This document shows positions 1-32,882 of a stretch of DNA of 64,000 nucleotides, in pieces. The notes under the pieces were generated by a model that saw nothing but the letters and a program-made list of their open reading frames with translations, did not search any database and was not told where the DNA came from. The stretch's first letter is position 1, and every line of letters begins with the position of its first letter. Both the position numbers and the translations under genes were made by a program. This stretch comes from Candidatus Nanopelagicales bacterium (GTDB taxonomy: Bacteria > Actinomycetota > Actinomycetes > S36-B12): contig JAGYJJ010000002.1 of the NCBI GenBank assembly GCA_018402235.1, positions 92,069-156,068 on the forward strand. The letters run 5' to 3'.

Positions 1-999
1 CGCGGTGATCAAATCGGGGATGACTTCAGCCACATCACCCACGATCGGGATGTCCGCATGCCGATTCTTGCCGATCTCCGCCGGATCAATATCTGCGTGA
101 ATAACCGATGCGTTCGGGGCGAAGCTCGACAGCTTGCCAGTCACACGATCATCGAAACGAGCGCCCAAAGTGATCAGTAGATCGGACTTTTGCAGCGCGC
201 CTACTGCTGCGACCGTTCCGTGCATCCCTGGCATGCCCAGGTGCTGCAGATGGGAATCGGGGAATGCGCCCCGCGCCATCAACGTCGTGACGACCGGGAT
301 CCCGGTGAGCTCAGCAAGGCGGCGCAGTGTTGCCGAAGCGCCAGCGCGAATCACGCCACCACCCACGTACAGCACCGGCTGCCGAGAGGCGAGGATTGCT
401 CGCGCTGCTTCGCGGATCTGCTTAGAGTGCGGCCGGGTGACGGGGTGGTAACCGGGCAAATCGATCTCGGTCGGCCACGCGAACTCGGTACTTGCTTGCA
501 GCGCGTCCTTCGAGATGTCTACGAGCACCGGACCGGGGCGACCGGTCGATGCCAGGTGAAACGCCTCGGCGATCGCGCGCGGGATCTCATCGGGGTTGGT
601 CACCAGGAAGTTGTGTTTGGTGATGGGCATCGTGATACCGCGAATGTCTGCCTCTTGGAACGCATCGGTGCCGATCGCGGCGCTTGGGACCTGACCGGTG
701 ATGGCAACCATCGGTACCGAGTCCATATGGGCGTCCGCGATCGGGGTGACCAGGTTGGTGGCACCCGGTCCGCTCGTGGCCATGCACACACCCACGCGTC
801 CGGTGGCTGCGGCGTAACCCTCCGCCGCGTGCCCAGCCGCCTGCTCGTGACGAACGAGAATGTGGCGGACCTTGGTGGAATCCATCAAAGGGTCATATAC
901 CGGAAGGATCGCCCCACCGGGAATGCCGAAGACCACATCAACGTCGGCGGTCTCCAACGACCGCACCAAAGAGTCGGCTCCGGTGATCTGCTCGCCCAT
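1..999 (-). CDS. ilvB: acetolactate synthase (AHAS) large subunit, N-terminal ~333 codons; 3' end lies beyond the window start
   Basis: My reverse-strand translation from ATG 999-997 gives [63 protein letters not shown]...[28 protein letters not shown], a typical TPP-dependent AHAS N-terminus. It is missing from the ORF track because it has no stop inside the window. The 190..1062 + ORF is its antisense shadow. Confidence 0.9.
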
Positions 1000-1035
1000 C
1001 TGCTCTTTCCTGTCTGGTTTTCGGTGGTACGAATG

Positions 1036-1068
1036 AAAAACCCTCCACACCCGGGTGGGTAGGAGGGA
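1036..1068 (-). terminator. putative attenuator terminator in the ilvB leader (GC-rich hairpin followed by T5 on the minus strand)
   Basis: Minus strand reads CTCCCTCCTACCCACCCGGGTGTGGAGGGTTTTTCATTCG. CCCTCC pairs with GGAGGG around an inner CACCC/GGGTG stem, followed by TTTTT. It lies about 35 nt upstream of the ilvB ATG and downstream of the leader ORF. Confidence 0.5.
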
Positions 1069-1089
1069 GCGCGCGGTTGACGGGGTGCG

Positions 1090-1140
1090 TCAGCGAGCGC
1101 GCCTGGGTACTACGAGAATTCGTGCGGTGCTTGTGGTCAC
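1090..1140 (-). promoter_or_regulatory. candidate ilvB leader peptide ORF (16 aa, MTTSTARILVVPRRAR)
   Basis: Minus strand reads GTG ACC ACA AGC ACC GCA CGA ATT CTC GTA GTA CCC AGG CGC GCT CGC TGA. It has a consecutive Ile-Leu-Val-Val run just upstream of the terminator-like hairpin. Leader-peptide attenuation of ilvBNC is known in Corynebacterium. The Shine-Dalgarno spacing is poor (GGGAG abuts the GTG). Confidence 0.45.
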
Positions 1141-1261
1141 TCCCGAACTGTAGCCCCTGGCGCCCCACCTGTCACGCCCCGGGGCCTTTTCCTCTCAGGT
1201 CCCCCGAGGGCAGTGGCGGAATGAAGCACATTTCGCCAGGGATTGGCGCAACGACCGTCGT

Positions 1262-1286
1262 TCGGCCAGCCCCTGGCGGAAAGTGC
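1262..1286 (-). other. conserved non-coding 25-mer downstream of ilvD copy 1 (minus strand GCACTTTCCGCCAGGGGCTGGCCGA), preceded by a C-rich tract
   Basis: 24 of 25 nt are identical to 8541..8565 downstream of ilvD copy 2, at the same offset (about 17 nt) from the stop codon. The flanking coding DNA of the two paralogues is visibly much more diverged. Confidence 0.7.
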
Positions 1287-1303: not shown

Positions 1304-3001
1304 TTAGCCCGTGATGGCGCCCTTCGAGGCGCTGCCCACGAGTTTCACGTATTTGCCCAGCACTCCCCGGTCGTAGCGGGGCGGCAGCGGGGTGAGTACC
1401 GCGCGGCGCTGCGCCAACTCGGACTCATCGACCAGCAGGTCCAAAGTCCGGTTCGGGATATCGATGCGAACCTGATCCCCGTCGGCCACCAGCGCGAGCG
1501 GGCCCCCATCGGCGGCCTCCGGACACACATGCCCCACGCACAACCCTGTAGTCCCTCCGGAGAAGCGACCGTCGGTGACCAACAGCACGTCCTTACCAAG
1601 ACCCGCGCCCTTGATCGCGGCGGTGATCATCAGCATTTCGCGCATGCCCGGTCCACCCTTGGGGCCCTCGTAACGAATAACGACGACGTCCCCCGCCTGA
1701 ATCGTCCCGTCTTCGAGAGCTGCCATCGCCGCTTGCTCTCGATCGAAAACCCGGGCGGCGCCTTCGAAAACATCGACCGGCACCCCGGCGTTTTTCACTA
1801 CCGCGCCATCAGGACACAGCGAACCGCCGAGAATCGTGATGCCGCCGGTAACACCGATCGGGTTGTTGAGCGGGCGCACCACCGTGCCGTCGATATCAGG
1901 TGGGTTCATGTCGGCGAGGTTCTCGGCCACCGTCTTGCCGGTCACTGTTAGGCAATCTCCGTGCAACAGACCGGCATCAAGCAGTGCCTTCATCACGACG
2001 GGAACTCCACCAACCTGGTCAAGGTCGAACATCAAGTACTCACCGAAGGGCTTCAAATCGGCGATGTGGGGAACCTTCTGACCGATGCGGTGAAAGTCAT
2101 CGATTCCCAGATCCACACCAACTTCGTGGGCAATCGCCGGAAGGTGAAGTACTGCGTTGGTTGAACCACCGAGGGCCATAATCACCGCAATGGCGTTCTC
2201 CAAGGATTGCTTGGTGATGATGTCGCGTGCGGTGATCCCCTGACGGATCATCTCCACAACGGCCTCCCCACTTCGACGCGCCAGGGTGTCCCGTCGAGCG
2301 TCGACTGCTGGCGGTGAGGAGGAGCCGGGGAGAGCCAACCCCATCGCTTCGGCGGCACTGGCCATGGTGTTCGCGGTGTACATGCCGCCGCAGGTTCCCG
2401 CGCTGGGACACACGGCTCGCTCAATGCGGTCAACGTCGTCGTCGTTCATCAACCCACGGGCACGCGCGCCAACTGCCTCGAACGCCGTAACGATATTGAC
2501 GGTGTGCTCACTGCCGTCGGATAGGCGCACATGTCCCGGCAGCAGCGACCCCGCGTAGAGCAAGACGGCAGCAATGTCGAGTCGCCCGGCCGCCATCATC
2601 ATTGCCGGAATGGACTTATCGCACCCTGCAAGTGTGACCATCCCATCGAGGCGCTCGGCTTGCATGACCGTCTCGACCGAATCGGCGATCACCTCACGGC
2701 TTACGAGCGAGAAATGCATACCTTCGTGACCCATCGAAATGACATCCGAGACGGTGATCGTTCCGAATTCCATCGGGAATCCGCCACCGGCCTCAATGCC
2801 CTGGGCAACTCCAACGGCCACGTCGCGCAATGACATATTGCACGGCGTGATCCGGTTGTAACTATTGGCTATTCCGATCTGCGGCTTGTCGAAATCGGCA
2901 TCATCCATGCCAAGAGCGCGCAACATCCCCCTGTTGGGCGCACGGTCGGGACCTTCGGTCACTAGGAAACTGCGGGGTTTCATCTGCGAGGGGGATGTCA
3001 T
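1304..3001 (-). CDS. ilvD: dihydroxy-acid dehydratase, copy 1 (565 aa, the more divergent paralogue), directly upstream of the ilvB leader
   Basis: ORF track 565 aa. IlvD/EDD hallmarks are present: [61 protein letters not shown]. Confidence 0.9.
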
Positions 3002-3103
3002 TCTCGTAGTCTAGGAAGCATCGTCAGCGGGGGTGCACACACCGACTACCGTCGCGGTTTAACAGACCGCACGCACATAGACACAGCACCGAGAGAAGGC
3101 GAC

Positions 3104-3961
3104 GTGAGCTACCGCACGATCATCACCCCGCGACAACTGCACGACCTTTCGCAATCTGGTGACGAACTCGTCATCTTGGATGCGCGTTTCAATCTCGATG
3201 ACGAGCAGTGGGGTGATCGCGCATTCACCGAAGGACACATTCCCGGCGCCCAACGCGCCGACCTGGCTCGTCACATGTCCGGGGAAATCATCGAGGGAAA
3301 AACCGGACGCCGACCCTTTCCTGACTCCGGAGCATTCGCCGAGACCATTCGCTCGTGGGGAGTCGGCCCGGCTACGCAGGTGGTGGTCTACGACGCCGAC
3401 CGCGGCCTGATGGCAGCCGCGCGCGCGTGGTTCATGCTGCGCTGGATGGGTCACGACGATGTGGCGGTCCTCGATGGCGGTCTGCCCGCGTGGGAAGCTG
3501 CCGGCTTCACGCTCACGAACGCTGCGGAAACTGCTCCAGTGCCGTCGTCGTCCTTCGAGCCGCGTGTTCGCGAGGAGATGGTGGCGGACGTGGAAGAAGT
3601 AGATGCGATGCGCGAGTTAGTTCCCACGCGCGTGTTCGACTCCCGGGGCCCGGAGGGCTATCACGGAAAGGGAAAGTACTACGACCCCGTCCGCGGGCAC
3701 ATCAAGGGCGCTGGACTGGCCGATCGAGCCGAGACGATCACCGAGCAAGGACAATTCCGGAGTCCGGAGCAACTGCGAGCGCACTACGACGCCCTGCGCG
3801 CTGGGCAGGACGCTCACGACATCGTCTTCTACTGCGGGTCCGGGGTTACCGCTGCTCAGAATGTGCTCGCCATGGAACATGCCGGACTTCCTGGAGCGCG
3901 GATGTACATCGGATCGTGGAGCGAATGGATCATCGATCCCAGCCGCGAGGTAGAACTGTGA
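3104..3961 (+). CDS. sseA: tandem-rhodanese thiosulfate/3-mercaptopyruvate sulfurtransferase (285 aa)
   Basis: ORF track 285 aa with GTG start. It has two rhodanese domains and the active-site loop YCGSGVTAAQ. Its stop overlaps the next start (GTGA at 3958-3961). Confidence 0.8.
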   Translation: MSYRTIITPRQLHDLSQSGDELVILDARFNLDDEQWGDRAFTEGHIPGAQRADLARHMSGEIIEGKTGRRPFPDSGAFAETIRSWGVGPATQVVVYDADRGLMAAARAWFMLRWMGHDDVAVLDGGLPAWEAAGFTLTNAAETAPVPSSSFEPRVREEMVADVEEVDAMRELVPTRVFDSRGPEGYHGKGKYYDPVRGHIKGAGLADRAETITEQGQFRSPEQLRAHYDALRAGQDAHDIVFYCGSGVTAAQNVLAMEHAGLPGARMYIGSWSEWIIDPSREVEL

Positions 3962-4986
3962 AGCGCCCCTATCGATTCGCACTCATCGGTTGTGGCTTTT
4001 TCGCCCAGAACCACCTCAAGGCGTGGGCAGACATGCCCGAAGTTGAACTGGTCGCCACCTGCGATATCGACGAGGCGAGCGCTACCGCGGCCGCCCGCGA
4101 TTTTGGTGGCCGGGCGTACACAGATGTTGCGGAACTGTTCGCCAACGAAGAGTTAGATTTCGTAGATATCGCTACTACCCCACCAACGCACCGGATGATG
4201 GTGGAACTCGCGGCCGAGCATGGCGTAGCGGCTATCTGCCAAAAGCCCCTCGCGTGGGACATGGCCGACGCCAAAGCGATGGTCAAAGCGATGGCCGATA
4301 AGGGCCTACCGTTCATGGTGCACGAGAATTTCCGATTCCAGTACCCAATGCGCAAGGTCAAGGAAGTCCTCGATAGCGGCGCCATCGGACGGCCGTTCTT
4401 TAGCCGCATCAGTTTTCGCACCGCGCACGATGTCTACTCAGCTCAGCCTTGGTGCATGGACGCAGATCGCATGATCATCGCCGACGTATCCGTGCATCAA
4501 TTCGATCTGACGCGCTTTTTCATGGGCGAACCCGATCGGCTGTTCACCGATGCCGATCCGCGTGAATCCGAAGATCAAAGGCGAGGACGTCGCCACGATT
4601 GTTCTGTCCTTACCGGGGGCTACCTGCATCGTGGATACCAGCTACGAAAGCAAGTCCGATCACAGTACGTATCCGCAGACCTTCGTCGCCATCGAAGGCA
4701 CTGAGGGAACGATCACTCTGGGCCCGGACTACCACCTGCAGGTGGTCTCCCCGCAGGTATTCACGAGGAGACACTCGTCATTCCAGAACACTCCTGGACG
4801 TCGGAGCCGTGGGATTGCATCCAAGACAGTGTGGTGAATGTGCAGCGACACTGGATTCATTGCCTCAACACGGGGGCGTCCCCAGAAACAAGCGGAGCAG
4901 ACACGCTCCGCGTGCTGGATCTCACCTTGGGTGCCTACCAGTCGCTGGAGAGCGGGGAGCCTTACCGCGTGGGCAGCATGTTGTGA
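3958..4986 (+). pseudogene. Gfo/Idh/MocA-family NAD(P) oxidoreductase, interrupted as sequenced by two compensating frameshifts (~4550-4558 and ~4745-4752)
   Basis: Frame 1 (from GTG 3958) gives VKRPYRFALIGCGFFAQNHLKAW...HQFDLTRFFMGEPDRLFT. Frame 2 continues the homology with RVNPKIKGEDVATIVLSLPGATCIVDTSYES...GPDYHLQVV. Frame 1 resumes with AGIHEETLVIPEHSWTSEPWDCIQDSVVNVQRHWIHCLNTGASPETSGADTLRVLDLTLGAYQSLESGEPYRVGSML*. Frame 1 itself hits a stop at 4702-4704. Confidence 0.75.
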
Positions 4987-6746
4987 ATCAGACCTTCACG
5001 ATCGGTGATCTTCAGGTCACCGTTGACGGCATCGAACTGCGCGATATCCGTTGGCAGGGCTACGAGGCGATTCGCCGCATCTACCCGGTTTTTCAGGATC
5101 GCAACTGGACGAACCGGCCATTCTCCATCGATGAATGTTCGACAGACAGCACGTCAGATGCGGTGAACCTCAACGCGAGCGGAACCGGTTCCTTCGATGC
5201 CGAGCCGCTGAGTTGGGAAGTCCAGGCTCGCATCAGCGACGATGCCATCGCGTATCACTTCACGGCGCAGTCCACGTCGTCCTTCCTCCGCAATCGACTG
5301 GGGCTGTGCGTACTTCATCCGATGTCCGCAGCCGGGAGCACCTGCCAGGTGGAACACACCGACGGGAGCCACACGAATTCAGCGCTTCCCGAGACAATCT
5401 CCCCGCACCAACCGTTCGTAGACATTCGAGCGATCACTCATGCGCTTCCGGGCGGGGGCACGGCGACCGTACGCATGACCGGCGAAACCTTCGAAATGGA
5501 GGATCACCGGAACTGGACGGATGCCTCGTTCAAGACCTACTGCACGCCCATCTCGCTGCCTTTCCCCGTTGAGGTAACTCCCGGCGCGATCATCGAACAG
5601 CACGTTTCGGTGACGTTTACCCCCGGCGATCCCGCCACCACTCAGCCTTCGGACACCATCACGATCAGCTTCGATGATCACGTAACGGACCTACCTCGAC
5701 TGGGAACGTGCCTACCCGCTGATTCCCGGACGCTAACCAACGTTCAAGCCGAACAGTTCGCCACTCTCAGCCTCGACCACCTACGCATCGACCTCGATCC
5801 GAGCGCTACGGACGCAACGGATCAGTTGGCAGCCGCCGCCCAATCTGCTTACCGAATAGGTACCCACCTGCGAGTCAGCACTACCTGCGAGGACCCATCC
5901 CAGTTGCACACCTTCGCGGACGCGCCCACGGACGTCACCTCACTGATCGACTGCTGGTACGTGTTCAGCGCGAACCACAAGGTCACGCCAACGCAGTGGG
6001 CATCGGAAGCCCGGGCAGTCCTCGGCCCTGGTTTCGATCACGTTCGACTAGGCGGTGGCACGAATCTGTATTTCACCGAGCTCAACCGAGAACCACCGGA
6101 CACACTGGCGTTCGACGTCCTGAACTTCTCGATCAATCCTCAAGTACACGCGTTCGATGACCAAACTCTGATTCAGAACACCATGACCCAGCAGATAGTG
6201 GCGGAGAACGCCATTCGATTGACCGAACCCGCCGAACTATCTGTAGCGCCGATCACGCTTCGCCCGCGATTCAATCCGAACGCGACCGATCCCGAAAGCG
6301 ACGTCAGCAACACGGCGCTGCCCAGCGATGTTGATGCCCGTCAACGCACGTACTTCGCCGCACATTGGGCCGCGATGAGCATCAAATACCTGGCAGCCGC
6401 CAACTGCGTTGATGTGGCAACCTATTTCGAGGCGGTCGGCTGGCGGGGAATCATGGAATCGCCCTCAGGTTCGCCTGATACTGCGAACTTCCCGAGCGGC
6501 CCCGACGAACTTTTCCCCGTCTGGCAGGTATTCGAGGCGCTTGCAGACATGACGCACGCGCACACGTGCACTTCAAGTGCACCCGAGCTGGTCGACGCAC
6601 TGATCGTTTCCAATTCCACTGGCGCAAGTCGTGCTCTCATAGCCAATTGGAGCGATCAGGCTCGCTCCGTCACGATCTCCGGACGCACCACTGTCATGAT
6701 CGAGCCTCTTGAACTCACCATTCTCGAATTGATTGCCGCCCCCTAA
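4983..6746 (+). CDS. conserved hypothetical protein (~587 aa), translationally coupled to the Gfo gene; function unknown
   Basis: GTG at 4983 overlaps the upstream TGA (GTGA). Coding-like sequence runs from VNQTFTIGDLQVTVDGIELRDIRWQGYEAIRRIYPVFQDRNWTNRPF... to the stop at 6746. The upstream part of the 715-aa track ORF (4599-4982) is out-of-frame read-through of the Gfo gene. I recognise no family motif. Confidence 0.65.
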   Translation: MNQTFTIGDLQVTVDGIELRDIRWQGYEAIRRIYPVFQDRNWTNRPFSIDECSTDSTSDAVNLNASGTGSFDAEPLSWEVQARISDDAIAYHFTAQSTSSFLRNRLGLCVLHPMSAAGSTCQVEHTDGSHTNSALPETISPHQPFVDIRAITHALPGGGTATVRMTGETFEMEDHRNWTDASFKTYCTPISLPFPVEVTPGAIIEQHVSVTFTPGDPATTQPSDTITISFDDHVTDLPRLGTCLPADSRTLTNVQAEQFATLSLDHLRIDLDPSATDATDQLAAAAQSAYRIGTHLRVSTTCEDPSQLHTFADAPTDVTSLIDCWYVFSANHKVTPTQWASEARAVLGPGFDHVRLGGGTNLYFTELNREPPDTLAFDVLNFSINPQVHAFDDQTLIQNTMTQQIVAENAIRLTEPAELSVAPITLRPRFNPNATDPESDVSNTALPSDVDARQRTYFAAHWAAMSIKYLAAANCVDVATYFEAVGWRGIMESPSGSPDTANFPSGPDELFPVWQVFEALADMTHAHTCTSSAPELVDALIVSNSTGASRALIANWSDQARSVTISGRTTVMIEPLELTILELIAAP

Positions 6747-6759
6747 CCGAAAGGACGCC

Positions 6760-7581
6760 ATGCGACCCGCACCTGCCCTGCCTCCCACCACCGAGTTATT
6801 CCGTATGGATGGAATGCGCGTTTTGCTCACCGGGGCTGGCGGCGCCATCGGGTCCGTTCTCGCCCGAGCATTCGCGGACCTTGGTGCCGTGGTTACCGTC
6901 CATGACCTGACAACCGACAAAGTCCAACCGTTGGTTGCAGCAATCGAGGAAGCCGGCGGCACCGCATACGCCCTCTCAGCCGACATCTCCCACGCTGACC
7001 AGTGTTCGAGATTGATTGATGAAGCCGTGGCAACCATGGGTGGTCTGGACGTACTCGTCAATGGCGCGGGCATCAACCGACGCAAGCCGATCCTCGAAGT
7101 GACGGTGGATGACTTCGACGCCATCACCGCAGTGAACATGCGTGCGGTGTACTTCCTCAGCCAAGCTGCACACCCGCACCTCAAGAGCTCCGGGCGCGGT
7201 TCGATCGTGAACTTGAGTTCGCTGAGTGCCCGTTACAGCTTCAATACCATCTCCGTCTATGCGGCAACCAAAGCCGCGGTATCGGGCATGACGCGCAGCT
7301 TCGCACGCGAGTGGGTCAAGGACGACATCCGCGTGAACTGCATCGAGCCCTCAGTAGTGCAAACAGAGTTCACTAAGCCGCTGTGGGGTGAAGACCACCG
7401 GTATCGCTGGTTCGAAGACACAACGCCCATCGGCCGTCTTGCTCAGGCCAACGAACTGGTGGGAGCGGTCATCTTCTTGGCCACCCCGGCCTCGAGCTAC
7501 ATCACCGGACAATCCATCGTGATCGAGGGCGGAATCCTCGCTGGCGGCGATTGGGATTCCTACGCGGAGAACAATTCCTGA
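6760..7581 (+). CDS. short-chain dehydrogenase/reductase (SDR) family oxidoreductase
   Basis: ATG 6760 is preceded by AAAGGAC. Motifs present are TGAGGAIG (NAD-binding), NGAG, and a Y-x3-K catalytic pair (YAATKAAV). The 3' end overlaps the convergent FAH gene by 22 nt. Confidence 0.85.
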   Translation: MRPAPALPPTTELFRMDGMRVLLTGAGGAIGSVLARAFADLGAVVTVHDLTTDKVQPLVAAIEEAGGTAYALSADISHADQCSRLIDEAVATMGGLDVLVNGAGINRRKPILEVTVDDFDAITAVNMRAVYFLSQAAHPHLKSSGRGSIVNLSSLSARYSFNTISVYAATKAAVSGMTRSFAREWVKDDIRVNCIEPSVVQTEFTKPLWGEDHRYRWFEDTTPIGRLAQANELVGAVIFLATPASSYITGQSIVIEGGILAGGDWDSYAENNS

Positions 7582-8402
7582 CGCTGCTCGCCCAGTCCGG
7601 TGACGCCCAAAGTCATGACGTCACCTGCGTGCAGGTATCCGGGCTCGGCCATTCCCATAGCCACGCCCGGGGGCGTTCCGGTGTTCACCAGATCCCCTGG
7701 CTCGAGGACCATGAATTGGCTCACGTGGTGAAGGATTGTCGCCACGTTGAAGATCATGTCGTGGGTAGAGCCGGTTTGGCGCCGCTCGCCATTTACATCG
7801 CACCACAGGTCAAGACCCGCCGATAGATCCACCTCATCGGGCGTGACGAGCACCGGGCCACACGGGTTGAACGTCTCGCACGACTTCCCCTTGATCCATT
7901 GGCCGCTGCCACGATTGAGTTGCCACTCACGCTCGGAGACGTCGTTGCTGATGGCGAAACCGGCTATGTGGGACAGCGCCTGCTCCGGTGATTCCAGATA
8001 ACGGCACTGCTTGCCGATCACCACAGCCAACTCGACTTCATAGTCGACCTTCGTGGCTCCGCGGGGGATGCGAACATCGTCATAAGGGCCAACAAGACAG
8101 TTAGGTGCCTTGGTGAACAAGATCGGTTCTTCGGGAACTTTCATGCTGGATTCGTTGGCGTGGTCCACGTAGTTCAAGCCCACACACAAGATCGTGCTGG
8201 GGCGGGCAATCGGAGCACCGATGCGCCCGGAGACGACCGGAAGGGAGCCACTATCGAGCCCACGCAGCCGCTCCATACCGTCGCCCGCAAAGAAGGCCGG
8301 ATCGAAATCGTCGATCACGGCGGAGACATCTCTGTAGCTTCCGTCCACCGCCACCACGGCGGGAACCTCTCCCCCGAAATCACCGATTCGAACCAACCGC
8401 AT
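7560..8402 (-). CDS. fumarylacetoacetate hydrolase (FAH) family protein (280 aa)
   Basis: ORF track 280 aa. FAH-family signatures are present: VGLNYVDHANE, DYEVELAVVIGK, GTPPGVAMG. Confidence 0.85.
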   Translation of the reverse strand: MRLVRIGDFGGEVPAVVAVDGSYRDVSAVIDDFDPAFFAGDGMERLRGLDSGSLPVVSGRIGAPIARPSTILCVGLNYVDHANESSMKVPEEPILFTKAPNCLVGPYDDVRIPRGATKVDYEVELAVVIGKQCRYLESPEQALSHIAGFAISNDVSEREWQLNRGSGQWIKGKSCETFNPCGPVLVTPDEVDLSAGLDLWCDVNGERRQTGSTHDMIFNVATILHHVSQFMVLEPGDLVNTGTPPGVAMGMAEPGYLHAGDVMTLGVTGLGEQRQELFSA

Positions 8403-8540
8403 GTGCTTCTTCCCTTCATAGTGTTGTCGCGTGTTTGCGTCGTCGTCGTTCTAATGAGTGAAACATCGCCCCAGCTGACCCCATCGTGCGTGTGGCGAAA
8501 AGTTGGACAATCCGCCGCACCCTGGCGCACTGACGACCAA

Positions 8541-8565
8541 TCGGCCAGACCCTGGCGGAAAGTGC
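8541..8565 (-). other. second copy of the conserved non-coding 25-mer, downstream of ilvD copy 2 (minus strand GCACTTTCCGCCAGGGTCTGGCCGA)
   Basis: See 1262..1286. It has the same position relative to the TAA stop and is also preceded by a C-rich tract (CCCCCCCACCCCTCGT). Confidence 0.7.
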
Positions 8566-8581
8566 ACGAGGGGTGGGGGGG

Positions 8582-10270
8582 TTAATCGGTCACGGCACCC
8601 TTTGAGGCGCTGCCCACCAACTTGGCGTACTTCGACAGCACACCCCTGGTGTAGCGCTGGGGTAACGGCTGAAATTCCGCACGCCGCTCAACCAAGTCGG
8701 CATCGTCCACCAACAGTTCGAGCCTTCGATTCGGGATGTCGATACGAATGCGGTCACCATCGCGCACCAATCCGATCGGTCCACCGTCTACGGCCTCGGG
8801 TGCAACGTGACCCACGCATAGCCCGGTGGTGCCACCAGAGAATCGACCGTCGGTGATGAGTAGCACGTCCTTGCCTAGGCCCGCGCCCTTGATCGCACCG
8901 GTGATCATCAACATCTCGCGCATACCCGGACCACCCTTGGGGCCCTCGTAACGGATAACCACGACGTCGCCGGCCTGGATCGTCCCGTCCTCGAGCGCCG
9001 CCATGGCCGACTGCTCGCGCTCAAACACCCGCGCCGTTCCCTCGAAAACCTCCACCGGGATACCGGCGTTCTTCACCACCGCACCTTCAGGGCACAGCGA
9101 TCCAGACAAGATCGTGATGCCACCGGTCGGGGCGATCGCCTGCTTTGATGCCTTCAAGATCGTGCCGTCGGGGTCTGGCGGTGCGATATCGGCCAGGTTC
9201 TCTGCCATGGTCTTGCCGGTGACCGTCAGGCAGTCGCCATGCAACAGGCCTGCATCAAGCAGCGCGCGCATGATCACCGGTACCCCACCCACGCGGTCCA
9301 CATCACTCATCACGTAGCGGCCGAAAGGCTTGACGTCCGCCAACAGTGGCACCTTCGAGCCGATGCGGTGGAAGTCCTCCATTTCCAATTCGACGTGGGC
9401 CTCGTGGGCGATCGCGAGCAGATGAAGTACCGCATTAGTTGAGCCGCCGAAAGCCATCAAAACTGCAATCGCGTTCTCCAGCGACTGTCGCGTGATGATG
9501 TCGCGGGTGGTGATGCCCTGGCGTAACAACTCGACCACAGCTTCACCGCTCTTGCGCGAATATTCATCACGTCGGCGATCTACGGCCGGAGGTGCAGCTG
9601 ATCCGGGCAGCGACATACCCATGGCTTCGGCAGCACTAGCCATGGTGTTGGCCGTGTACATGCCACCGCACGCACCTTCACCTGGGCAAATGGCCCTCTC
9701 GATGAGGTCGACGTCTTCGCGCGACATGAGCCCACGTGCGCAGGCACCAACGGCTTCAAAGGCGTCGATGATCGTGACATCCTTCTCTGTGCCATCAGAG
9801 AGTTTCACGTGTCCGGGCAGGATCGATCCTGCATAGACGAACACGGCAGCGATATCCAGCCGGGCGGATGCCATCAACATGCCGGGCAGCGACTTGTCGC
9901 AGCCAGCGAATGTCACGATGCCATCAAGACGCTCGGCCTCCACAACCGCTTCCACGGAATCGGCGATGATCTCGCGGCTGACAAGGGAGAAGTGCATTCC
10001 CTCGTGCCCCATCGAGATGCCGTCGGAAACCGAGATCGTTCCAAACTCCATCGGGAAACCACCTGCGGCAAAGACGCCCTCCTTGGCGGCTGTCGCGAGC
10101 CGATCCAAGGACATGTTGCAGGGGGTGATCTCATTCCAGCTGGAGGCAATGCCTATCTGTGATTTGGTGAAGTCTTCGTCCCCCATACCGACCGCGCGCA
10201 GCATTCCGCGCGCCGCGGCCCGCTCGAGTCCGTCCGTTACGTCTCGGCTACGTGGCTTGATATCAGGCAT
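8582..10270 (-). CDS. ilvD: dihydroxy-acid dehydratase, copy 2 (562 aa, the more canonical paralogue)
   Basis: ORF track 562 aa. Motifs present are [67 protein letters not shown] and [11 protein letters not shown]. By eye about three quarters of residues are identical to copy 1. Confidence 0.9.
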
Positions 10271-10306: not shown

Positions 10307-11197
10307 TCAGGGAGCAACCACGTTTTCCAAAGGCTCACCACTACGCCACCGCTGCACCTGCCTGGCGATGAGTTGTCGGGCCAAGCGAGGGAACGCATCC
10401 GTGTCGCCGCCTATGTGAGGCGTGATCAAAACCCCGGGGGCAGCCCACAGTGGATGATCGGCTGGCAGCGGTTCTGGATCGACCACATCAAGAGCGGCTT
10501 CTATCCGGGGGAGGTGCGCAAGGAGATCGTCAGTGACCACAACCGGGCCACGTGCCACATTGACTAAGAGCGCTCCATCAGCCATTCGCGCCAAAAAGGC
10601 GCTATTAACCATGCCGTCGGTCTCCGCGGTGAGAGGAACGGCAAGAACTACGACGTCGGCAGCGCCTAGGAGATCGGGGAGTTCATCGGCTCCGGCAATG
10701 CGGTCACGTCGAGAGCGTCCCACTAATTGAATGTGACAGCCCAACGGCGCGAGAGCATCGGCGATGCCGCGCCCCACGCCACCAGCACCGACGACAAGTA
10801 CTCGGGAATCTTGCAGTGATCGTCCGCGACGGTGCTTCCATGCGCCTTCGGCCATATCGCGCGCTGCCCGATCAACGCCTCGCCACTTGGCGATGATCAA
10901 GCCCACCGTCAGCTCGGCTGTGCTCTGCTCGTGAACGCCTGCGGCATTGCAAAGCGTTACCCCTTCGGGGAGGTACGTCAGTGCCGCATCGAAACCAACG
11001 GTGGGCAGTTGCGCCACCTGCAGTGCCGGAAACCGGGCCATCCACTCGGGGTTCGGACTATCGATGTAGTCAGGAACAAAGAAGCCCACGCCGCCGCGAA
11101 CTACTTCGTCGGGTAGTTGACCCGGTGCGTACGTGACACAGTCCGCGATATCAGCAGGTGCCAGCAGCTCAGGGACGAGAACCAGGTCACCCGGCAC
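10307..11197 (-). CDS. D-isomer-specific 2-hydroxyacid dehydrogenase family protein (296 aa)
   Basis: GTG start lies 5 nt after the gatB stop. Motifs present are VLVVGAGGVGRG (NAD fold), VNVARG, and ITPHIGG (catalytic His). Confidence 0.8.
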   Translation of the reverse strand: MPGDLVLVPELLAPADIADCVTYAPGQLPDEVVRGGVGFFVPDYIDSPNPEWMARFPALQVAQLPTVGFDAALTYLPEGVTLCNAAGVHEQSTAELTVGLIIAKWRGVDRAARDMAEGAWKHRRGRSLQDSRVLVVGAGGVGRGIADALAPLGCHIQLVGRSRRDRIAGADELPDLLGAADVVVLAVPLTAETDGMVNSAFLARMADGALLVNVARGPVVVTDDLLAHLPRIEAALDVVDPEPLPADHPLWAAPGVLITPHIGGDTDAFPRLARQLIARQVQRWRSGEPLENVVAP

Positions 11198-11202
11198 GTT
11201 CG

Positions 11203-12723
11203 CTACCCCTCGACTCCCAGATGCGCCAGCAAGAGAGTTCGCACCTTCGCGGCATCGGCCTGACCCTTCGTGGTCTTCATCACCGCTCCCACGATAGCGC
11301 CGGCGGCTTGTACCTTGCCCGAGCGGATTTTCTCGGCAACATCGGGCTGCTCGGCCAAGGCGGACTCAATTGCAGCCATCAGCGTTGAGTCATCGCCCAC
11401 CACCGCTAAACCGCGACCAGCGATAACGGAGTCGGGGTCACCTTCCCCCGCCACTACTCCTTCGAACACCTGACGCGCGAGTTTGTCGGTCAACGAGCCA
11501 TCGGCGATGAGCGATTCGACTCGGGCGATATGGGCCGAAGTGATCCCCAGATCGGCGAGGGCAACGCCCTGCTCATTTGCGATTCGCGTGAACTCACCGG
11601 TCCACCATTTGCGGGCTGCTGCCTGATCAACGCCTGCAACGATGGTTTCCTCGACAAGGTCGAGTGCTTCGGCATTGACCAAAGTCTGCATTTCCAGATC
11701 GCTGACGCCCCATTCCACCTGCAGCCGCGAACGCCGCACCGAAGGCACTTCCGGCAAGGTTGTTCGTAGTTCCTCGATCCACTCAGAGCTCGGCGCAACG
11801 GGCACAAGATCTGGTTCGGGGAAGTAGCGATAGTCCTCGGCTTGTTCCTTGGATCGACCCGGCGTGGTCTCGCCGGTGTCTTCGTGGAAATGCCGCGTTT
11901 CTTGGATGATGCGGCCACCCTCGGACAGCACGGCCCCCTGACGCTCGATCTCAAAGCGGACGGCTCGCTCAACCGAGCGCAAGGAGTTCACGTTCTTGGT
12001 CTCCGAACGGGTCCCCCACGGTTCGCCCGCCGGCGCTAGCGAGACGTTCACATCGCAGCGCAAAGACCCCTGGTCCATGCGCACATCGGAAACCCCGAGG
12101 GCCCGCATCAGATCGCGCACTTCTGCCACGTACGCACGAGCGACCACCGGGGCCAGCGCACCCGCGCCGGTAATCGGTTTGGTGACGATCTCGATAAGCG
12201 GAATGCCTGCCCGGTTGTAATCGACCAGGGAGTAGTCCGCGCCATGGATGCGGCCAGTATCGCCACCGGAGTGGGTGAGTTTGCCGGTGTCCTCTTCCAT
12301 GTGAACGCGTTCGATCTCAACCCGGAACTCTCGCGGGCCATCGTCGGTTGGAACAGTCACGTCGAGGTAGCCGTTGGTGCAAAGCGGCTCGTCGTACTGA
12401 CTGACCTGGTAGTCCTTAGGCATGTCCGGATAGAAGTAGTTCTTGCGAGCGAAGCGGCACCACGACGCAATATCGCAGTGCAGGGCAAGCCCCATCCGAA
12501 TGGTCGATTCCACCGCTACCGCATTCACAACGGGAAGCGAGCCCGGCAGACCCAGGCAGACCGGACAGACCTGCGTGTTCGGTTCTCCACCGAACTCGGT
12601 CGCGCACGAGCAGAACATCTTGGAGGCGGTACCAAGTTCGACGTGCGTCTCCAGACCCAGGACCGGCTCGAAGCGCTCCAGCGCTTGGTCGAAGTCCATA
12701 CGAGTGTTCACTACGGAAGTCAT
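11203..12723 (-). CDS. gatB: Asp-tRNA(Asn)/Glu-tRNA(Gln) amidotransferase subunit B
   Basis: Homology starts at [35 protein letters not shown] 12723 overlaps the gatA stop (ATGA). The 12 upstream codons of the track ORF are rejected. Confidence 0.9.
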
Positions 12724-14228
12724 AGCGCCGGCACCTCCTCGATCAGTTCGTGTCCCCACTTGTCAACGAGCGCCTGCTCAAGCGCCGCCCCCACGCGATA
12801 CAAACGGTCGTCGGCGAGCGCGGGCGCCATAATCTGTAGCCCCACGGGTAGACCATCCTCTGGTGCCAGCCCAATCGGTATCGACATCGCGCAATTGCCC
12901 GCGAGGTTGACCGGGATCGTGGCGATGTCGTTGAGGTACATCGCGAGCGGATCGTCCACCTTCTCTCCAATGCGGAACGCCGTTGTGGGCGCCGTGGGAG
13001 AGATCAACACATCTGCCTGATCAAAAGCCGCTGCGAAGTCGCGGGTGATCAGTGTTCGAACCTTTTGCGCCTGTCCGTAGTAGGCGTCGTAGTAGCCACT
13101 TGACAGCGCATAAGTGCCGAGCATGATCCGGCGCTTCACCTCGGATCCGAATCCTGCTTCGCGGGTTTGCGACATAACTTCCTCGACCGAGGCCTGTCCA
13201 TCATCACCCACGCGCATGCCGTAGCGCATGCCGTCGAAGCGAGCGAGATTGCTCGATGCTTCGGACGGGAGGATCAGGTAGTAAGCAGCAAGCGCATACT
13301 CGAAATTGGGACAGGAGACTTCGACCACATCGGCGCCAAGATCACCCAAGATCGCAACAGCCTCATCAAAGCGTTGCCGGACACCCTCCTGGTAGCCCTC
13401 ACCACCCAGTTCGCGCACCAAACCGATTCGCATGCCACGAACATCAGCGTTCTTCGCGGCCGCGACCACATCGGGAACCGGTGCATCGATGGACGTGGAA
13501 TCGCGAGGGTCGTGCCCGGCGATCACCGCATGCAACAACGCGGCATCCATCACCGTCCGGGCACAGGGACCGGCTTGGTCGAGAGAGGACGCAAGGGCGA
13601 CGAGCCCGTACCGCGAGACACCGCCGTAAGTGGGTTTGACGCCAACGGTCCCGGTGACCGCAGCCGGCTGCCGGATCGATCCACCGGTATCGGTGCCGAT
13701 CGCCAACGGGGCTTCGAATGCCGCAAGTGCTGCAGCAGAACCGCCTCCCGAACCGCCAGGAATCCGTTCGAGGTCCCACGGATTTCGGGTGGGGCCATAC
13801 GCGCTGTGTTCGGTGGATGACCCCATGGCGAACTCATCCATATTTGTTTTCCCGAGGATCACCACTCCAGCGTCGCGAAGTCGCTCGACCACGGTGGAGT
13901 CATAGGGCGGACGCCAACCCTCAAGGATGCGCGAACCACAGGTGGTGGGCACCCCGTTCATCGTGAGCACGTCCTTCAGGGCCAGCGGAACACCCGCCAG
14001 TGGTCCCAGCGCTGCGCCGGTGCTTCGCAATTCGTCGATACCGCGAGCCGTTTCGAGTGCGGCATCGCGATCAACGTGCAAGAAGGCGTGCACTTGCCCA
14101 TCCACCGCATCGATCCGATCCAAACACGCTTGGGTCACCTCGACAGACGTGACTTCTCCGCCCTGCATTGCCGCCGCCATGGTGGCCGCATCCTGGCGCG
14201 CGAGGTCGCCATCCATCACCGGCGCCAT
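12720..14228 (-). CDS. gatA: Glu-tRNA(Gln) amidotransferase subunit A
   Basis: Amidase signature [13 protein letters not shown] is present. The start [21 protein letters not shown] at 14228 lies 1 nt after the gatC stop. The upstream 55 codons of the track ORF overlap gatC and are rejected. Confidence 0.9.
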
Positions 14229-14229
14229 G

Positions 14230-14526
14230 TCAGTCCTCACCCAAGATGCGCGGCACCTTGAAGCGGTCGTCTTCCCACGAGGGCGCGGCCGCAGCCAGCT
14301 CGGCGCGATCCAATCCCGGCTTGGCGACATCCTCGCGGTAGACATTCGTAATAGGGATCGGGTGCGATGTGGGAGGAATGTCTTGAGCTGCAACGTCGGA
14401 GACCCGGGCTACCGCTTCGACGATCGCCGACAGCTGATCGGCGTAGTGAGCGGTTTCCTCCTCGGTCAATTCCAGTCGAGCCAGGTGGGCGAGGTGCTGG
14501 ACTTCCTCGCGAGAGATCTGTGCCAT
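14230..14526 (-). CDS. gatC: Glu-tRNA(Gln) amidotransferase subunit C (98 aa)
   Basis: Sequence begins [24 protein letters not shown], and the gene has the expected size and position ahead of gatA. Confidence 0.9.
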
Positions 14527-14530
14527 GACC

Positions 14531-17740
<3,210 letters not shown>

Positions 17741-31574: not shown

Positions 31575-31765
31575 CGTGGTCGGATTCGCATCACAACTGA
31601 ATGCACGCGCTCGACGTCCAGGGGAAGCCGGTGGAAATCCGGCGCTGTCCCGCAACCGTGAGTTCACGAAGGTTCAACCCGTGAACAAGTCGGAGCACCT
31701 GGCGGGCGCGAGCGGCTCCATCCGTCGAGGTAACGGGACGAGTCCACGGGTCACCCCCTGACACG
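31575..31765 (+). ncRNA. cobalamin (AdoCbl) riboswitch aptamer; boundaries approximate
   Basis: The conserved core GGGAAGCCGGTGGAAATCCGGCGCTGTCCCGCAACCGTGA is at 31621-31661, and a B12-box-like AAGTCGGAGCACCTGGC is at 31687-31703. The order and spacing match the cobalamin riboswitch consensus as I know it (Rfam RF00174). Confidence 0.8.
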
Positions 31766-31766
31766 T

Positions 31767-31798
31767 CCCTCATGCGGCTCGCATGAGGGATTTTCGTT
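31767..31798 (+). terminator. riboswitch expression-platform terminator
   Basis: CCCTCATGCG-GCT-CGCATGAGGG is a perfect 10-bp stem, followed by ATTTTCGTT. It lies 53 nt upstream of the first operon ATG. Confidence 0.75.
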
Positions 31799-31850
31799 GG
31801 GCGGCCGCGCGGGCAGCGCTCCGGACCGCTCACACGAAGGGGATCGACCC

Positions 31851-32882
31851 ATGGTCATCCGAACGATGAAATCCGCTCTCGCGGTGGTCAGCGCCACGGC
31901 CTTAGCGATGGTAATTCTTGCCACCCCTGCCCAAGCCTCCGATACCGGTCTGTACGGGCAAACCGACCCATCCGCCGATGGTGTCTATCGGCAATCCCTA
32001 GCAATGTTGGGTCTTACAGCCGCCGGCCTCACGCCTGCCCGGTCGGCTGTGAATTGGCTCCTGAGCCAGCAGTGCGCCGATGGAAGTTTCCAGGCGTACC
32101 GCGCAGATACGTCGGCGCCGTGCGCACCGAGCGATCCGGAGGCTTTCACCGGACCCGACACGAATTCGACCGCGCTCGCCGCCATGGCCCTTGAAGCAGT
32201 CGACGAGAATCGAGCAGCAGCGCGCGCCGCTGGCGCTCTTGTTCGCGGTGCACAGACATCCGGGCGCCAATCGGCATGGCCCTACAACTTCGGTGGTACC
32301 CCCGATGCAAGTAGCACCGGCCTGGTCGTCAACGCCCTCGATTCGGTAGGTGCGAATTCGGCGACGATCGCAGGTGGCAAGCGTTGGCTTCGCGCTCGCA
32401 TCATCCCGTGTGGACGCACATATGGCGGAGCGATGCGAAACGACACTTCATCGCCCGCAGCCAACAATTTTGCCACGGCACAAGGTCTCCTCGGACTGAC
32501 CGACGCACTTCCCGTGGACGAAAAGGCCGACCCCCAGCCCAACCCACGATGCTCCGGTGCTGCAGCTACCCGGACATCGAGCTACCTCGCGCGGACATTA
32601 AGCCGCGATGGCGTCCTCACCTACTCCGGGTTCGGTGGTAAGGACTACGGATCGACGTCGGCGGCGATAATCGGCCTCGGTGGAGCCGACGTTGGCCAGC
32701 AAGGAATCCGAACAGCGGTCGCAGCTTTGAAGCGTGACGCCCGAAGCTGGATCACCACCGATGCTGGCAACAGCGTTGGCGCAGCGGGATGGCTGCTGAT
32801 GGTTGCTACGAGCACCGGTGAGAACCCTCGTTCATTCGGTGGAGTGAACCTGATCCAAGCAATCACCGGCAGCATTCGTTGA
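31851..32882 (+). CDS. secreted protein with prenyltransferase/terpene-cyclase-type alpha/alpha-toroid repeats (343 aa)
   Basis: RBS GAAGGGGA precedes ATG 31851. The signal peptide MVIRTMKSALAVVSATALAMVILATPAQA/SD is present. Repeat motifs are LLSQQCADGSFQ, WPYNFGGTPDASSTG and ATAQGLLGL. Confidence 0.7.
   Translation: MVIRTMKSALAVVSATALAMVILATPAQASDTGLYGQTDPSADGVYRQSLAMLGLTAAGLTPARSAVNWLLSQQCADGSFQAYRADTSAPCAPSDPEAFTGPDTNSTALAAMALEAVDENRAAARAAGALVRGAQTSGRQSAWPYNFGGTPDASSTGLVVNALDSVGANSATIAGGKRWLRARIIPCGRTYGGAMRNDTSSPAANNFATAQGLLGLTDALPVDEKADPQPNPRCSGAAATRTSSYLARTLSRDGVLTYSGFGGKDYGSTSAAIIGLGGADVGQQGIRTAVAALKRDARSWITTDAGNSVGAAGWLLMVATSTGENPRSFGGVNLIQAITGSIR

Follow-up and report, generated by a model that had tools for sequence, protein, structure and literature searches.

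We analyzed a 64,000-nt stretch of DNA from a Candidatus Nanopelagicales bacterium (GenBank assembly GCA_018402235.1, contig JAGYJJ010000002.1, positions 92,069 to 156,068; hereafter, the window), in which two intact genes of the IlvD/EDD family lie on the minus strand on either side of a set of putative sugar-metabolism genes. The two genes, ilvD1 (1304..3001, 565 aa) and ilvD2 (8582..10270, 562 aa), encode proteins that are identical at 421 of 558 positions (75%) in a gap-free BLASTP alignment. A preliminary description of the same DNA had reported two full-length genes on one strand, had estimated their identity by eye at about three quarters, and had called copy 2 canonical and copy 1 deviant near the cluster and active site; we found both open reading frames, and the motif differences that it quoted are correct. 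Here, we discuss the reading that ilvD1 is quite probably the dehydratase of a conserved sugar module, with ilvD2 as the housekeeping dihydroxy-acid dehydratase (DHAD), as judged from comparisons of sequences and gene neighborhoods.

Divergently from ilvD1, across an intergenic region of 102 nt, runs a plus-strand operon. Its first gene (3104..3961) encodes a two-domain rhodanese of the 3-mercaptopyruvate sulfurtransferase type with a CGSGVT active site (NF008557, 112 bits, below the cut-off), and overlaps by 4 nt the start of a disrupted Gfo/Idh/MocA dehydrogenase gene (Gfo; 3958..4986), whose product resembles the D-apiose 1-dehydrogenase ApsD and matches the structure PDB 5UHW. The Gfo stop in turn overlaps the start (GTGA) of the gene for a 587-aa ApnL-family lactonase (4983..6746), which matches NF049900 over its full length, and this is followed by the gene for a short-chain dehydrogenase/reductase (SDR; 6760..7581), putatively a 2-keto-3-deoxy-acid dehydrogenase. 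Convergent with the operon, on the minus strand, stands an accessory FAH-family hydrolase gene (7560..8402; NF053535, 333 bits, cut-off 500), whose product has the L-2,4-diketo-3-deoxyrhamnonate hydrolase 8GSR as its best structural match (253 bits). The lactonase had been listed as an unknown protein; besides the NF049900 match (265 bits), its orthologues carry the Pfam domains PF25837/PF25838 (Apionate_lact_N/M). Likewise, the rhodanese, which had been counted merely among the neighbors, is an integral, translationally coupled part of the operon.

Both IlvD copies belong to the DHAD family by profile searches. They pass TIGR00110 (cut-off 618) with 724 bits for ilvD1 and 723 bits for ilvD2, and NF002068 (cut-off 644) with 835 and 854 bits, respectively, and lie far under the cut-offs of the models for L-arabinonate, xylonate, and 6-phosphogluconate dehydratases (for ilvD1, 430 bits for NF009559, cut-off 882; 267 bits for TIGR03432, cut-off 808). 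When positions were mapped from the residues of Arabidopsis DHAD (AtDHAD) listed in PMC12137828, the ligand and catalytic set of ilvD1 was complete (C54, D86, C127, D128, K129, C204, E455, and S481), with the three cluster cysteines, the Mg2+ ligands, the position of the carbamylated lysine, and the catalytic serine all kept. Specificity hot spots and markers of the classes BCADHT, SADHT, and PADHT have been described for DHADs (Melse et al. 2022, PMC9314677). Of these, ilvD1 shows the branched-chain class markers D138 (its D86), Y261 (its Y208), SGGT, and GCDKS, with no C-terminal His; the SADHT markers GCDKTT, GHC[M/N]T, Glu138, Gly261, and SGTA were all absent from ilvD1, which has GCDKSI, GTCGG, Asp, Tyr, and SGGT instead.

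The best 120 database relatives of ilvD1 (79-96% identity) came mostly from freshwater metagenomes and from metagenome-assembled genomes (MAGs) named 'Candidatus Nanopelagicales'. Nearly all of them carry the motif SDVISMG, in which a Gly beside the Mg2+-binding Asp is changed to Val, together with CP[ST][AV]GTCGG, and the Glu of SWNEITPCN is substituted; we call this clade SDV-type after the first motif. The motif at the third cysteine was GTCGG, not the GACGG of the branched-chain class, in all 34 of 34 clade members. When group-specific fixed residues were counted on an alignment of 124 sequences, 17 changes were specific to the SDV clade and 4 to the ilvD2 group, and a further 4 were derived states shared by both. 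The SDV-clade changes include G87V, L131I, G133A, T169N, I171V, D172T, G200S/T, E201A, A203T, and L288P. Of the 17, nine are no more than 4 residues away from an AtDHAD ligand or pocket residue (hypergeometric p = 2e-4), where closeness is a proxy measured along the sequence and not a three-dimensional distance. Hot spot 73 corresponds to P22, which does not vary within the SDV clade, whereas 87 canonical sequences have Ala (48), Pro (24), or Thr (15) there; hot spot 224 carries I171V, and G87V stands beside D138. The residue preceding the third cluster cysteine is altered by A203T, which yields GTCGG and may be compared with GTCSG of the promiscuous Sulfolobus solfataricus enzyme (SsDHAD). 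Hydroxyl or amide side chains are gained near the pocket through T169N, D172T, G200S/T, and A203T, and the hydrophobic pocket residues Ile170, Phe174, and Tyr208 are retained. Between orthologues, dN/dS was 0.05-0.065 for ilvD1, which indicates that the gene is functional, and it ranged from 0.04 to 0.065 across both copies. Since both copies are under strong purifying selection between orthologues, the excess of changes arose on the stem after the duplication.

We scanned a genome collection with ilvD1 and mapped all window proteins onto the 80 loci that were recovered. In 78 of these, which belong to further actinobacteria and to a small number of other bacteria, a single ilvD was 72-86% identical to ilvD2 and 67-75% to ilvD1, and in every case nearer to ilvD2; homologues of the lactonase, Gfo, and rhodanese were absent within 10 kb of ilvD. 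Of the two copies, ilvD2 is by these comparisons orthologous to the housekeeping DHAD. In one Nanopelagicales MAG (L004), gatB, ilvD, and ilvB follow each other with nothing between them; this locus falls inside the ilvD2 group and has neither the module nor ilvD1. The order gatB...hadh-ilvD-ilvB, where hadh is the D-2-hydroxyacid dehydrogenase gene, is widespread (Quadrisphaera, Arthrobacter, Kribbella, and others), and no module gene occurs there. In the window, hadh (10307..11197) and gatB (11203..12759), both on the minus strand, follow upstream of ilvD2 as ancestral flank outside the module. Because hadh is paired with ilvD in cassette-free actinobacteria, it is an ancestral ilvD neighbor and not the cassette gene for which it had been taken. 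The cassette had also been described as an insertion between duplicated ilvD copies within the gatB...ilvB interval; L004, which has no insert, bears out the insertion, but not its placement between pre-existing copies, since the inserted unit includes ilvD1 itself. Homologues of the window hadh were seen upstream of ilvD in 15 of the loci, from unrelated actinobacteria (L008, L014, L016, L024, L035, L038, L043, L045, L066, L068, L074-L076, L078, and L079).

A recent duplication or gene conversion of ilvD1 and ilvD2 was considered and rejected, as synonymous sites have reached saturation and uninterrupted identity extends over 23 nt at most. The two genes are 70% identical in nucleotides, and third-position identity at conserved codons is 0.47, with modestly higher values (0.63-0.72) at codons 427-467 only. 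ilvD1 probably goes back to an ancient duplication of a DHAD gene in actinobacteria, within or near a Nanopelagicales-like lineage. Paired family members also occur independently in some Cellulomonas-like genomes and relatives, in which a distant IlvD/EDD paralogue (38-40% identity) lies directly upstream of the canonical ilvD (L023, 8006-9829; L026, 7317-9140; L041, 8503-9705).

Exact-protein look-ups showed that long contigs with SDV-type proteins have the gene arrangement of the window. The SDV-type ilvD adjoined the module in all three genomic contexts examined: between ilvD2 and ilvBNC (L084-L086, L089, and L094), between ilvD2 and pterin-4a dehydratase/dnaE2 (L081-L083 and L090), and standing alone in acI-like genomes far from ilv genes (L087/L088, L125, L133, L140, L149, and L168). 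Within the last context, L087/L088 were found through distant lactonase homologues (44-46% identity) and have no gatB, ilvD2, or ilvB nearby. When metagenomes were scanned with a lactonase alignment as the only seed, 78 loci were returned, of which 37 modules with at least 1.95 kb upstream of the rhodanese were scored. The SDV-type ilvD was divergent from the rhodanese in 34 of these 37 and absent in 3. In the modules examined, the rhodanese was always upstream of Gfo and the SDR always came after the lactonase. The FAH gene was present in 18 of 18 modules whose lactonase was at least 54% identical to that of the window, in 4 of 6 at 46-54%, and in 7 of 27 below 46%. Because its presence thus depends on the distance from the window, we regard ilvD1, rhodanese, Gfo, lactonase, and SDR as the core module and FAH as an accessory; the FAH gene, previously counted as a cassette gene, is one in the window and in only part of the clade. 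The unit of SDV-type ilvD, rhodanese, Gfo, lactonase, SDR, and FAH was found twice in tandem before ilvD2 in two contigs (L100 and L101; FUFK010037778 and FUFK010065112), which may reflect either a true duplication or an assembly artefact.

Exchanges of single genes at these loci were also observed. A housekeeping DHAD is kept beside the SDV copy, either as ilvD2 or, in L107/L112, as an E. coli-type 645-aa DHAD at the ilvD2 position (13499-15436; NF009103, 1158 bits), with the SDV copy remaining; it looks from the sequence as if the housekeeping copy there was replaced by another DHAD class. In L147 and its near-duplicate L144, the module lacks an SDV-type ilvD and a canonical ilvD lies nearby. 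The region 12542-17113 of L147 encodes a transketolase split into two open reading frames, an enolase-superfamily acid-sugar dehydratase, a second SDR, and a GntR/NanR regulator, and then the canonical ilvD. The enolase-superfamily enzyme looks like a non-orthologous replacement of the module dehydratase. In at least 10 distinct acI-type loci, downstream of the module SDR and in the same orientation, lie mtnA (TIGR00512, 388 bits, above the cut-off), a fusion of a class II aldolase and an SDR (RhaD-like), and a RuBisCO-like protein that is closer to MtnW (205 bits) than to OiaX (76 bits). The gap between the SDR and mtnA is mostly within about 60-100 nt, and a polar-amino-acid-type ABC transporter is inserted in some loci. 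Such a co-directional run spans 8116-19258 of L087 and recurs in seven other loci (L123, L124, L125, L132, L133, L140, and L149), and no mtn gene was found within the 64-kb window.

The Gfo gene of the window is damaged. Relative to two metagenome contigs that are 98.3-98.7% identical to the window in nucleotides and in which Gfo is intact with 342 aa (L094 and L095), it has an extra G at 4555 (+1) and lacks a T at 4752 (-1), 197 nt apart; the shifted stretch holds a premature stop at about 4702-4704, and the open reading frame ends at 4704. The frameshift noticed earlier is present in the sequence, and it consists more exactly of two indels and a stop. Gfo is intact in all other relatives examined, and the remaining module genes of the window are all intact. 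Between recent inactivation and random sequencing error, the former is somewhat more likely, because no other indel breaks a frame in 9.2 kb of alignment; the four other coding indels form in-frame pairs, 5-7 nt apart, in the lactonase gene.

The intact Gfo orthologue had 5UHW as its best PDB match (333 bits, about 50% identity), and the second-best structure reached 85 bits. A homologue of 5UHW (83.5%) is encoded on a Sinorhizobium plasmid (L092), where its stop overlaps the start of the gene for ApnL (NF049900, 1043 bits) in a canonical apiose cluster that further comprises OiaX (786 bits), an OiaK-like kinase, a ribose-type ABC transporter, and a 275-aa protein matching 5T57 (446 bits). The last structure is the D-apionate oxidoisomerase ApnO (bioRxiv 10.1101/2020.08.24.261826). 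By elimination within this cluster, the 5UHW-type enzyme would be the D-apiose 1-dehydrogenase ApsD; an assignment of 5UHW as ApnO was rejected, as ApnO is 5T57, which belongs to another fold family. As far as sequence and gene overlap tell, the translationally coupled Gfo-lactonase pair of the window is homologous to ApsD-ApnL. A front end like those for fucose, rhamnose, or pentoses had been suggested for the cassette; its enzymes are closer to ApsD and ApnL. ApnO, OiaK, and a RuBisCO-like decarboxylase/hydrolase were absent from the window and from window-type loci, and our literature search returned no report tying apiose or apionate to a dehydratase.

Downstream of ilvD1, beyond a spacer of about 300 nt, begins ilvB for the large subunit of acetolactate synthase, which lies outside the module (1..999, minus strand, truncated by the window edge). 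Its control region (1035..1175, minus strand) comprises a promoter-like site (1147-1175) from a sigma-70 scan, a leader peptide open reading frame MTTSTARILVVPRRAR (1090-1140) preceding the ilvB start at 999, and a terminator-like hairpin with a T-run (1035-1067) in the attenuator region. ilvD1 thus does lie directly upstream of an ilvB leader, as had been noted. In relatives, matches to the ilvB N-terminal part (69-94%) come directly after ilvD. Since ilvBNC has its own predicted promoter and attenuator, read-through from ilvD1 is not needed. Apart from the single promoter-like site before the leader, the scan for sigma-70 promoters and terminators gave results at or below chance. A hairpin directly 3' of the ilvD1 stop (1226..1286, minus strand) has a minimum free energy of -37.6 kcal/mol (z = -3.3). 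It is located inside a flank of about 95 nt (1205-1303) that is homologous to the 3' flank of ilvD2 (8484..8581, minus strand), although synonymous sites within the genes are saturated; the fold of the latter is not significant (z = -0.97). The two flanks share the motif GCACTTTCCGCCAGGG at 1271-1286 and 8550-8565, and L081 and L084 have no such homologous flank. These flanks may represent a terminator under constraint, a small repeat element, or what is left of the duplication.

On the other side of ilvD1, a -10-like hexamer TAGACT (3008..3013, minus strand) lies 6 nt upstream of the ATG, which suggests a leaderless transcript from a candidate promoter of its own. The motif CTCGTAGT[CG]TAGGAA is kept in the ilvD1-rhodanese intergenic regions of the closest relatives. 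A search of this region for a conserved operator found only the -10-like box in common among close relatives and no clade-wide palindrome. Other genes around the locus are gatA, ligA, mnmA, a cysteine desulfurase-like gene, and etfAB. An Rfam scan of the entire window gave no match in 1-12 kb; its only match was an AdoCbl (cobalamin) riboswitch at 31593-31747 on the plus strand (53.8 bits; gathering score 50), 5' of an open reading frame at 31797-32882.

On the basis of these observations, we propose the following scheme, which as a whole we consider somewhat favored. ilvD2 would serve as the housekeeping DHAD of branched-chain amino-acid synthesis. ilvD1 would have passed through a burst of substitutions beside metal ligands and the substrate pocket and then come under strong purifying selection, as one arm of a conserved five-gene module, divergent from rhodanese, Gfo, lactonase, and SDR, to which FAH was added in this sub-lineage. 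Gfo would oxidize a furanose-type aldose to the 1,4-lactone, which the lactonase would open to a (2R)-2,3-dihydroxy acid; IlvD1 would dehydrate this acid to a 2-keto-3-deoxy acid by standard [2Fe-2S]/Mg2+/Ser chemistry, the SDR would oxidize C4 to give a 2,4-dioxo acid, and FAH would cleave the latter to a 2-keto acid and a small acid. We guess that the rhodanese may supply sulfur to the Fe-S cluster of the dehydratase. The earlier suggestion that one ilvD copy was recruited as an acid-sugar dehydratase gains from comparative genomics, in that the divergent copy is the one that travels with the sugar genes.

As for the substrate, D-apiose is our tentative preference. D-Apionate is (2R)-2,3-dihydroxyisovalerate with both methyl groups hydroxylated, and its sole stereocenter is C2. 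Such likeness to the ancestral substrate would account for the recruitment of a branched-chain-type DHAD in preference to a classical sugar-acid dehydratase, and D-apionate as substrate would explain the fixed gains of hydroxyl and amide groups near the pocket. Dehydration of D-apionate by a neofunctionalized DHAD would replace the ApnO, kinase, and RuBisCO-like steps. The fuller idea, namely an undescribed dehydratase-dependent route for D-apiose, a branched sugar of plants, or another furanose-only sugar in the freshwater actinobacteria of highest abundance with the rhodanese serving the Fe-S cluster, is possible but speculative.

An oxidative D-apiose pathway has reportedly been worked out by Carter and colleagues in 2018. 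It comprises ApsD, ApnL, ApnO, OiaK, and the RuBisCO-like OiaX/OiaC/OiaT (PMC12994016); the coupled Gfo-lactonase pair of the window is homologous to its first two enzymes, whereas a DHAD paralogue, an SDR, and FAH stand in the window in place of ApnO, OiaK, and OiaX. The proposed steps also parallel Route III, in which an aldose 1-dehydrogenase, a lactonase, an acid-sugar dehydratase, an SDR 4-dehydrogenase, and an FAH-family 2,4-diketo-acid hydrolase act in succession, as with LRA5/LRA6 for L-rhamnose and in the L-fucose route (Watanabe et al. 2019, PMC6336799). The same five gene types are co-located at 1304-8402 of the window, with Gfo frameshifted, and the same set occurs in L081, L084, L090, and L094. 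However, the window differs in having an ApnL-family lactonase, an integral rhodanese, and a DHAD-clade paralogue as proposed dehydratase instead of an enzyme of the enolase, UxaA/GarD, or sugar-acid IlvD/EDD type; most distant modules also lack FAH.

Among dehydratases, ilvD1 resembles the branched-chain DHADs of Mycobacterium tuberculosis (6OVT, 867 bits) and Arabidopsis (5ZE4) in its ligands and class markers, and differs from them in the 17 clade-fixed changes and in having sugar genes rather than ilv genes as partners. With the SADHT enzymes (L-arabinonate dehydratase of R. leguminosarum, 5J84; D-xylonate dehydratase of C. crescentus, 5OYN; and PuDHT), it has the superfamily, the chemistry, and the proposed oxidative sugar role in common, but it matches those structures at 239-347 bits and carries no SADHT marker. 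ilvD1 would therefore be a recruitment independent of the known arabinonate and xylonate dehydratases. SsDHAD, a PADHT, is likewise a DHAD-clade enzyme that handles sugar acids and has Thr before the third cysteine (GTCSG, compared with GTCGG); however, it is a single dual-purpose enzyme with Glu at 224 and SGAT, whereas in the window the roles appear to be split between two paralogues.

Several observations weigh against the proposed scheme. By the known class markers in its sequence, apart from the GTCGG motif at the third cysteine, ilvD1 is still a branched-chain-type DHAD; its score above the ilvD equivalog cut-off agrees with this, and dihydroxyisovalerate may still be among its substrates. 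The SDV clade joined the ilvD2 group in only 28 of 50 neighbor-joining bootstrap replicates; in the remaining 22, its long branch was placed at the base of the actinobacterial sequences, which sets a local duplication against a long-branch placement. In L162, the only ilvD near the module is a canonical one, and a second ilvD is therefore not universally required. The FAH gene lies immediately downstream of ilvD2, with a gap of 10 nt in L084/L085, and for this reason FAH may be co-transcribed with the housekeeping ilvD2. The first enzyme of the proposed route, Gfo, is disrupted in this very window. The lactonase is 28% identical (E = 1e-54) to a true ApnL (that of 1043 bits), and its NF049900 score lies below the cut-off of 750, which places it in the family and not among the D-apionate lactonase equivalogs. 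No linked transporter or regulator was found among the neighbor genes inspected in the lineage of the window, and the rhodanese fits neither a scheme for apiose nor one for ribose derivatives. Finally, the acI-type runs of module and mtnA point to 5-deoxyribose or 5-methylthioribose and not to apiose. The preliminary description had itself regarded a tight grouping of both copies with bona fide DHADs, along with identical substrate profiles, or relatives with the cassette and without a second ilvD, as unfavorable to recruitment. By sequence, ilvD1 does fall inside the DHAD clade, which does not settle its function, and three such relatives exist (L162 and the near-duplicates L144 and L147).

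The module may work as described on 5-deoxy-D-ribose or 5-methylthio-D-ribose, the aldonic acid of which IlvD1 would convert to 4-hydroxy-2-oxopentanoate (or its methylthio analogue), followed by oxidation to acetylpyruvate and cleavage by FAH to pyruvate and acetate or methylthioacetate. These sugars are by-products of S-adenosylmethionine use and, like apiose, obligate furanoses. The mtnA gene, the aldolase/SDR fusion, and the RuBisCO-like protein after the module SDR in at least 10 acI-type loci would fit such a substrate, as would the retained hydrophobic residues Ile170, Phe174, and Tyr208; the hydrolysis of acylpyruvates is a classic FAH-family reaction (with FAHD1 among the PDB matches), and the rhodanese hints at sulfur metabolism. 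Nevertheless, among characterized enzymes, direct homology is seen only to ApsD and ApnL from the catabolism of apiose, the lineage of the window combines FAH with a lack of mtn genes within 64 kb, and the polar gains near the pocket (T169N, D172T, G200S/T, and A203T) suit a more polar substrate. The split transketolase of L147 also recalls the non-oxidative apiose route, in which, according to what Carter and colleagues are said to have described in 2018, a transketolase takes part. We consider a ribose derivative somewhat less likely than D-apiose, but a contender to be taken seriously. A different objection concerns the dehydratase itself: ilvD1 could be a second true DHAD isozyme with a sturdier or differently regulated Fe-S cluster, repaired with the help of the rhodanese, and its linkage to sugar genes could be hitch-hiking. 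All catalytic residues and branched-chain markers are kept, TIGR00110 is passed, ilvD1 lies directly upstream of ilvBNC in many genomes, and the rhodanese otherwise lacks an explanation. This would leave unexplained that the linkage persists in three unrelated contexts, including acI genomes with no ilv gene nearby, that an enolase-type sugar-acid dehydratase takes the place of ilvD1 in L147, that a canonical DHAD is retained alongside wherever the flanks permit a check, and that the fixed substitutions are concentrated at specificity positions; moreover, ilvBNC has its own predicted promoter and leader beyond the strong hairpin. An isozyme is thus unlikely in our judgment.

The remaining alternatives carry less weight. 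ilvD2 might be the dehydratase of the pathway, or a single canonical enzyme might serve both roles, as could be argued from FAH directly downstream on the same strand (with the 10-nt gap in L084/L085), from L162 and L144/L147, where the module occurs without an SDV-type ilvD and with a canonical ilvD nearby, and from the measurable activity of branched-chain-type DHADs on short sugar acids (FtDHAD, PMC9314677). Yet ilvD2 cannot be told from the single-copy ilvD of 78 module-free genomes, no canonical ilvD lies near the acI modules, FAH does not occur in most of the distant modules, and it is ilvD1 that co-varies with the module, all of which makes this role for ilvD2 quite improbable. Finally, ilvD1 could be a duplicated target conferring self-resistance to a natural DHAD inhibitor, comparable to fungal AstD and aspterric acid, given that it is an extra, divergent copy of an inhibitor target in which changes lie close to the substrate channel, flanking the equivalents of AtDHAD I177/V178, which affect the binding of aspterric acid. 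This possibility had been ranked low from the outset, and we agree: no biosynthetic genes occur nearby in the window or in about 90 related loci, where the neighbors are housekeeping and sugar genes, and the clade combines age and a wide distribution with a strict linkage to the dehydrogenase and lactonase genes, so that self-resistance seems hardly credible.

An oxidative non-phosphorylative type of route with an SDR/FAH ending is already known, as is the family of every protein concerned. What appears to be new, judging from the gene content, is a distinct and widespread DHAD-clade subfamily that serves a sugar module, a pathway in which first enzymes like ApsD and ApnL are joined to a dehydratase and the steps after it, and the rhodanese as a fixed partner. 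Annotation pipelines label both copies 'dihydroxy-acid dehydratase'; the motifs SDVISMG and CP[ST]AGTCGG, together with a rhodanese-Gfo-lactonase-SDR neighborhood, tell them apart. If the proposed scheme is true, this locus would be a natural case in which a core biosynthetic Fe-S enzyme was duplicated and re-tuned for catabolism, and it would provide a short, defined set of about 17 candidate specificity-switching substitutions, several of them at or beside positions targeted in the engineering of DHADs for biocatalysis. Nanopelagicales/acI actinobacteria dominate freshwater bacterioplankton and are difficult to culture, and the module would add to their capacity for sugar utilization.

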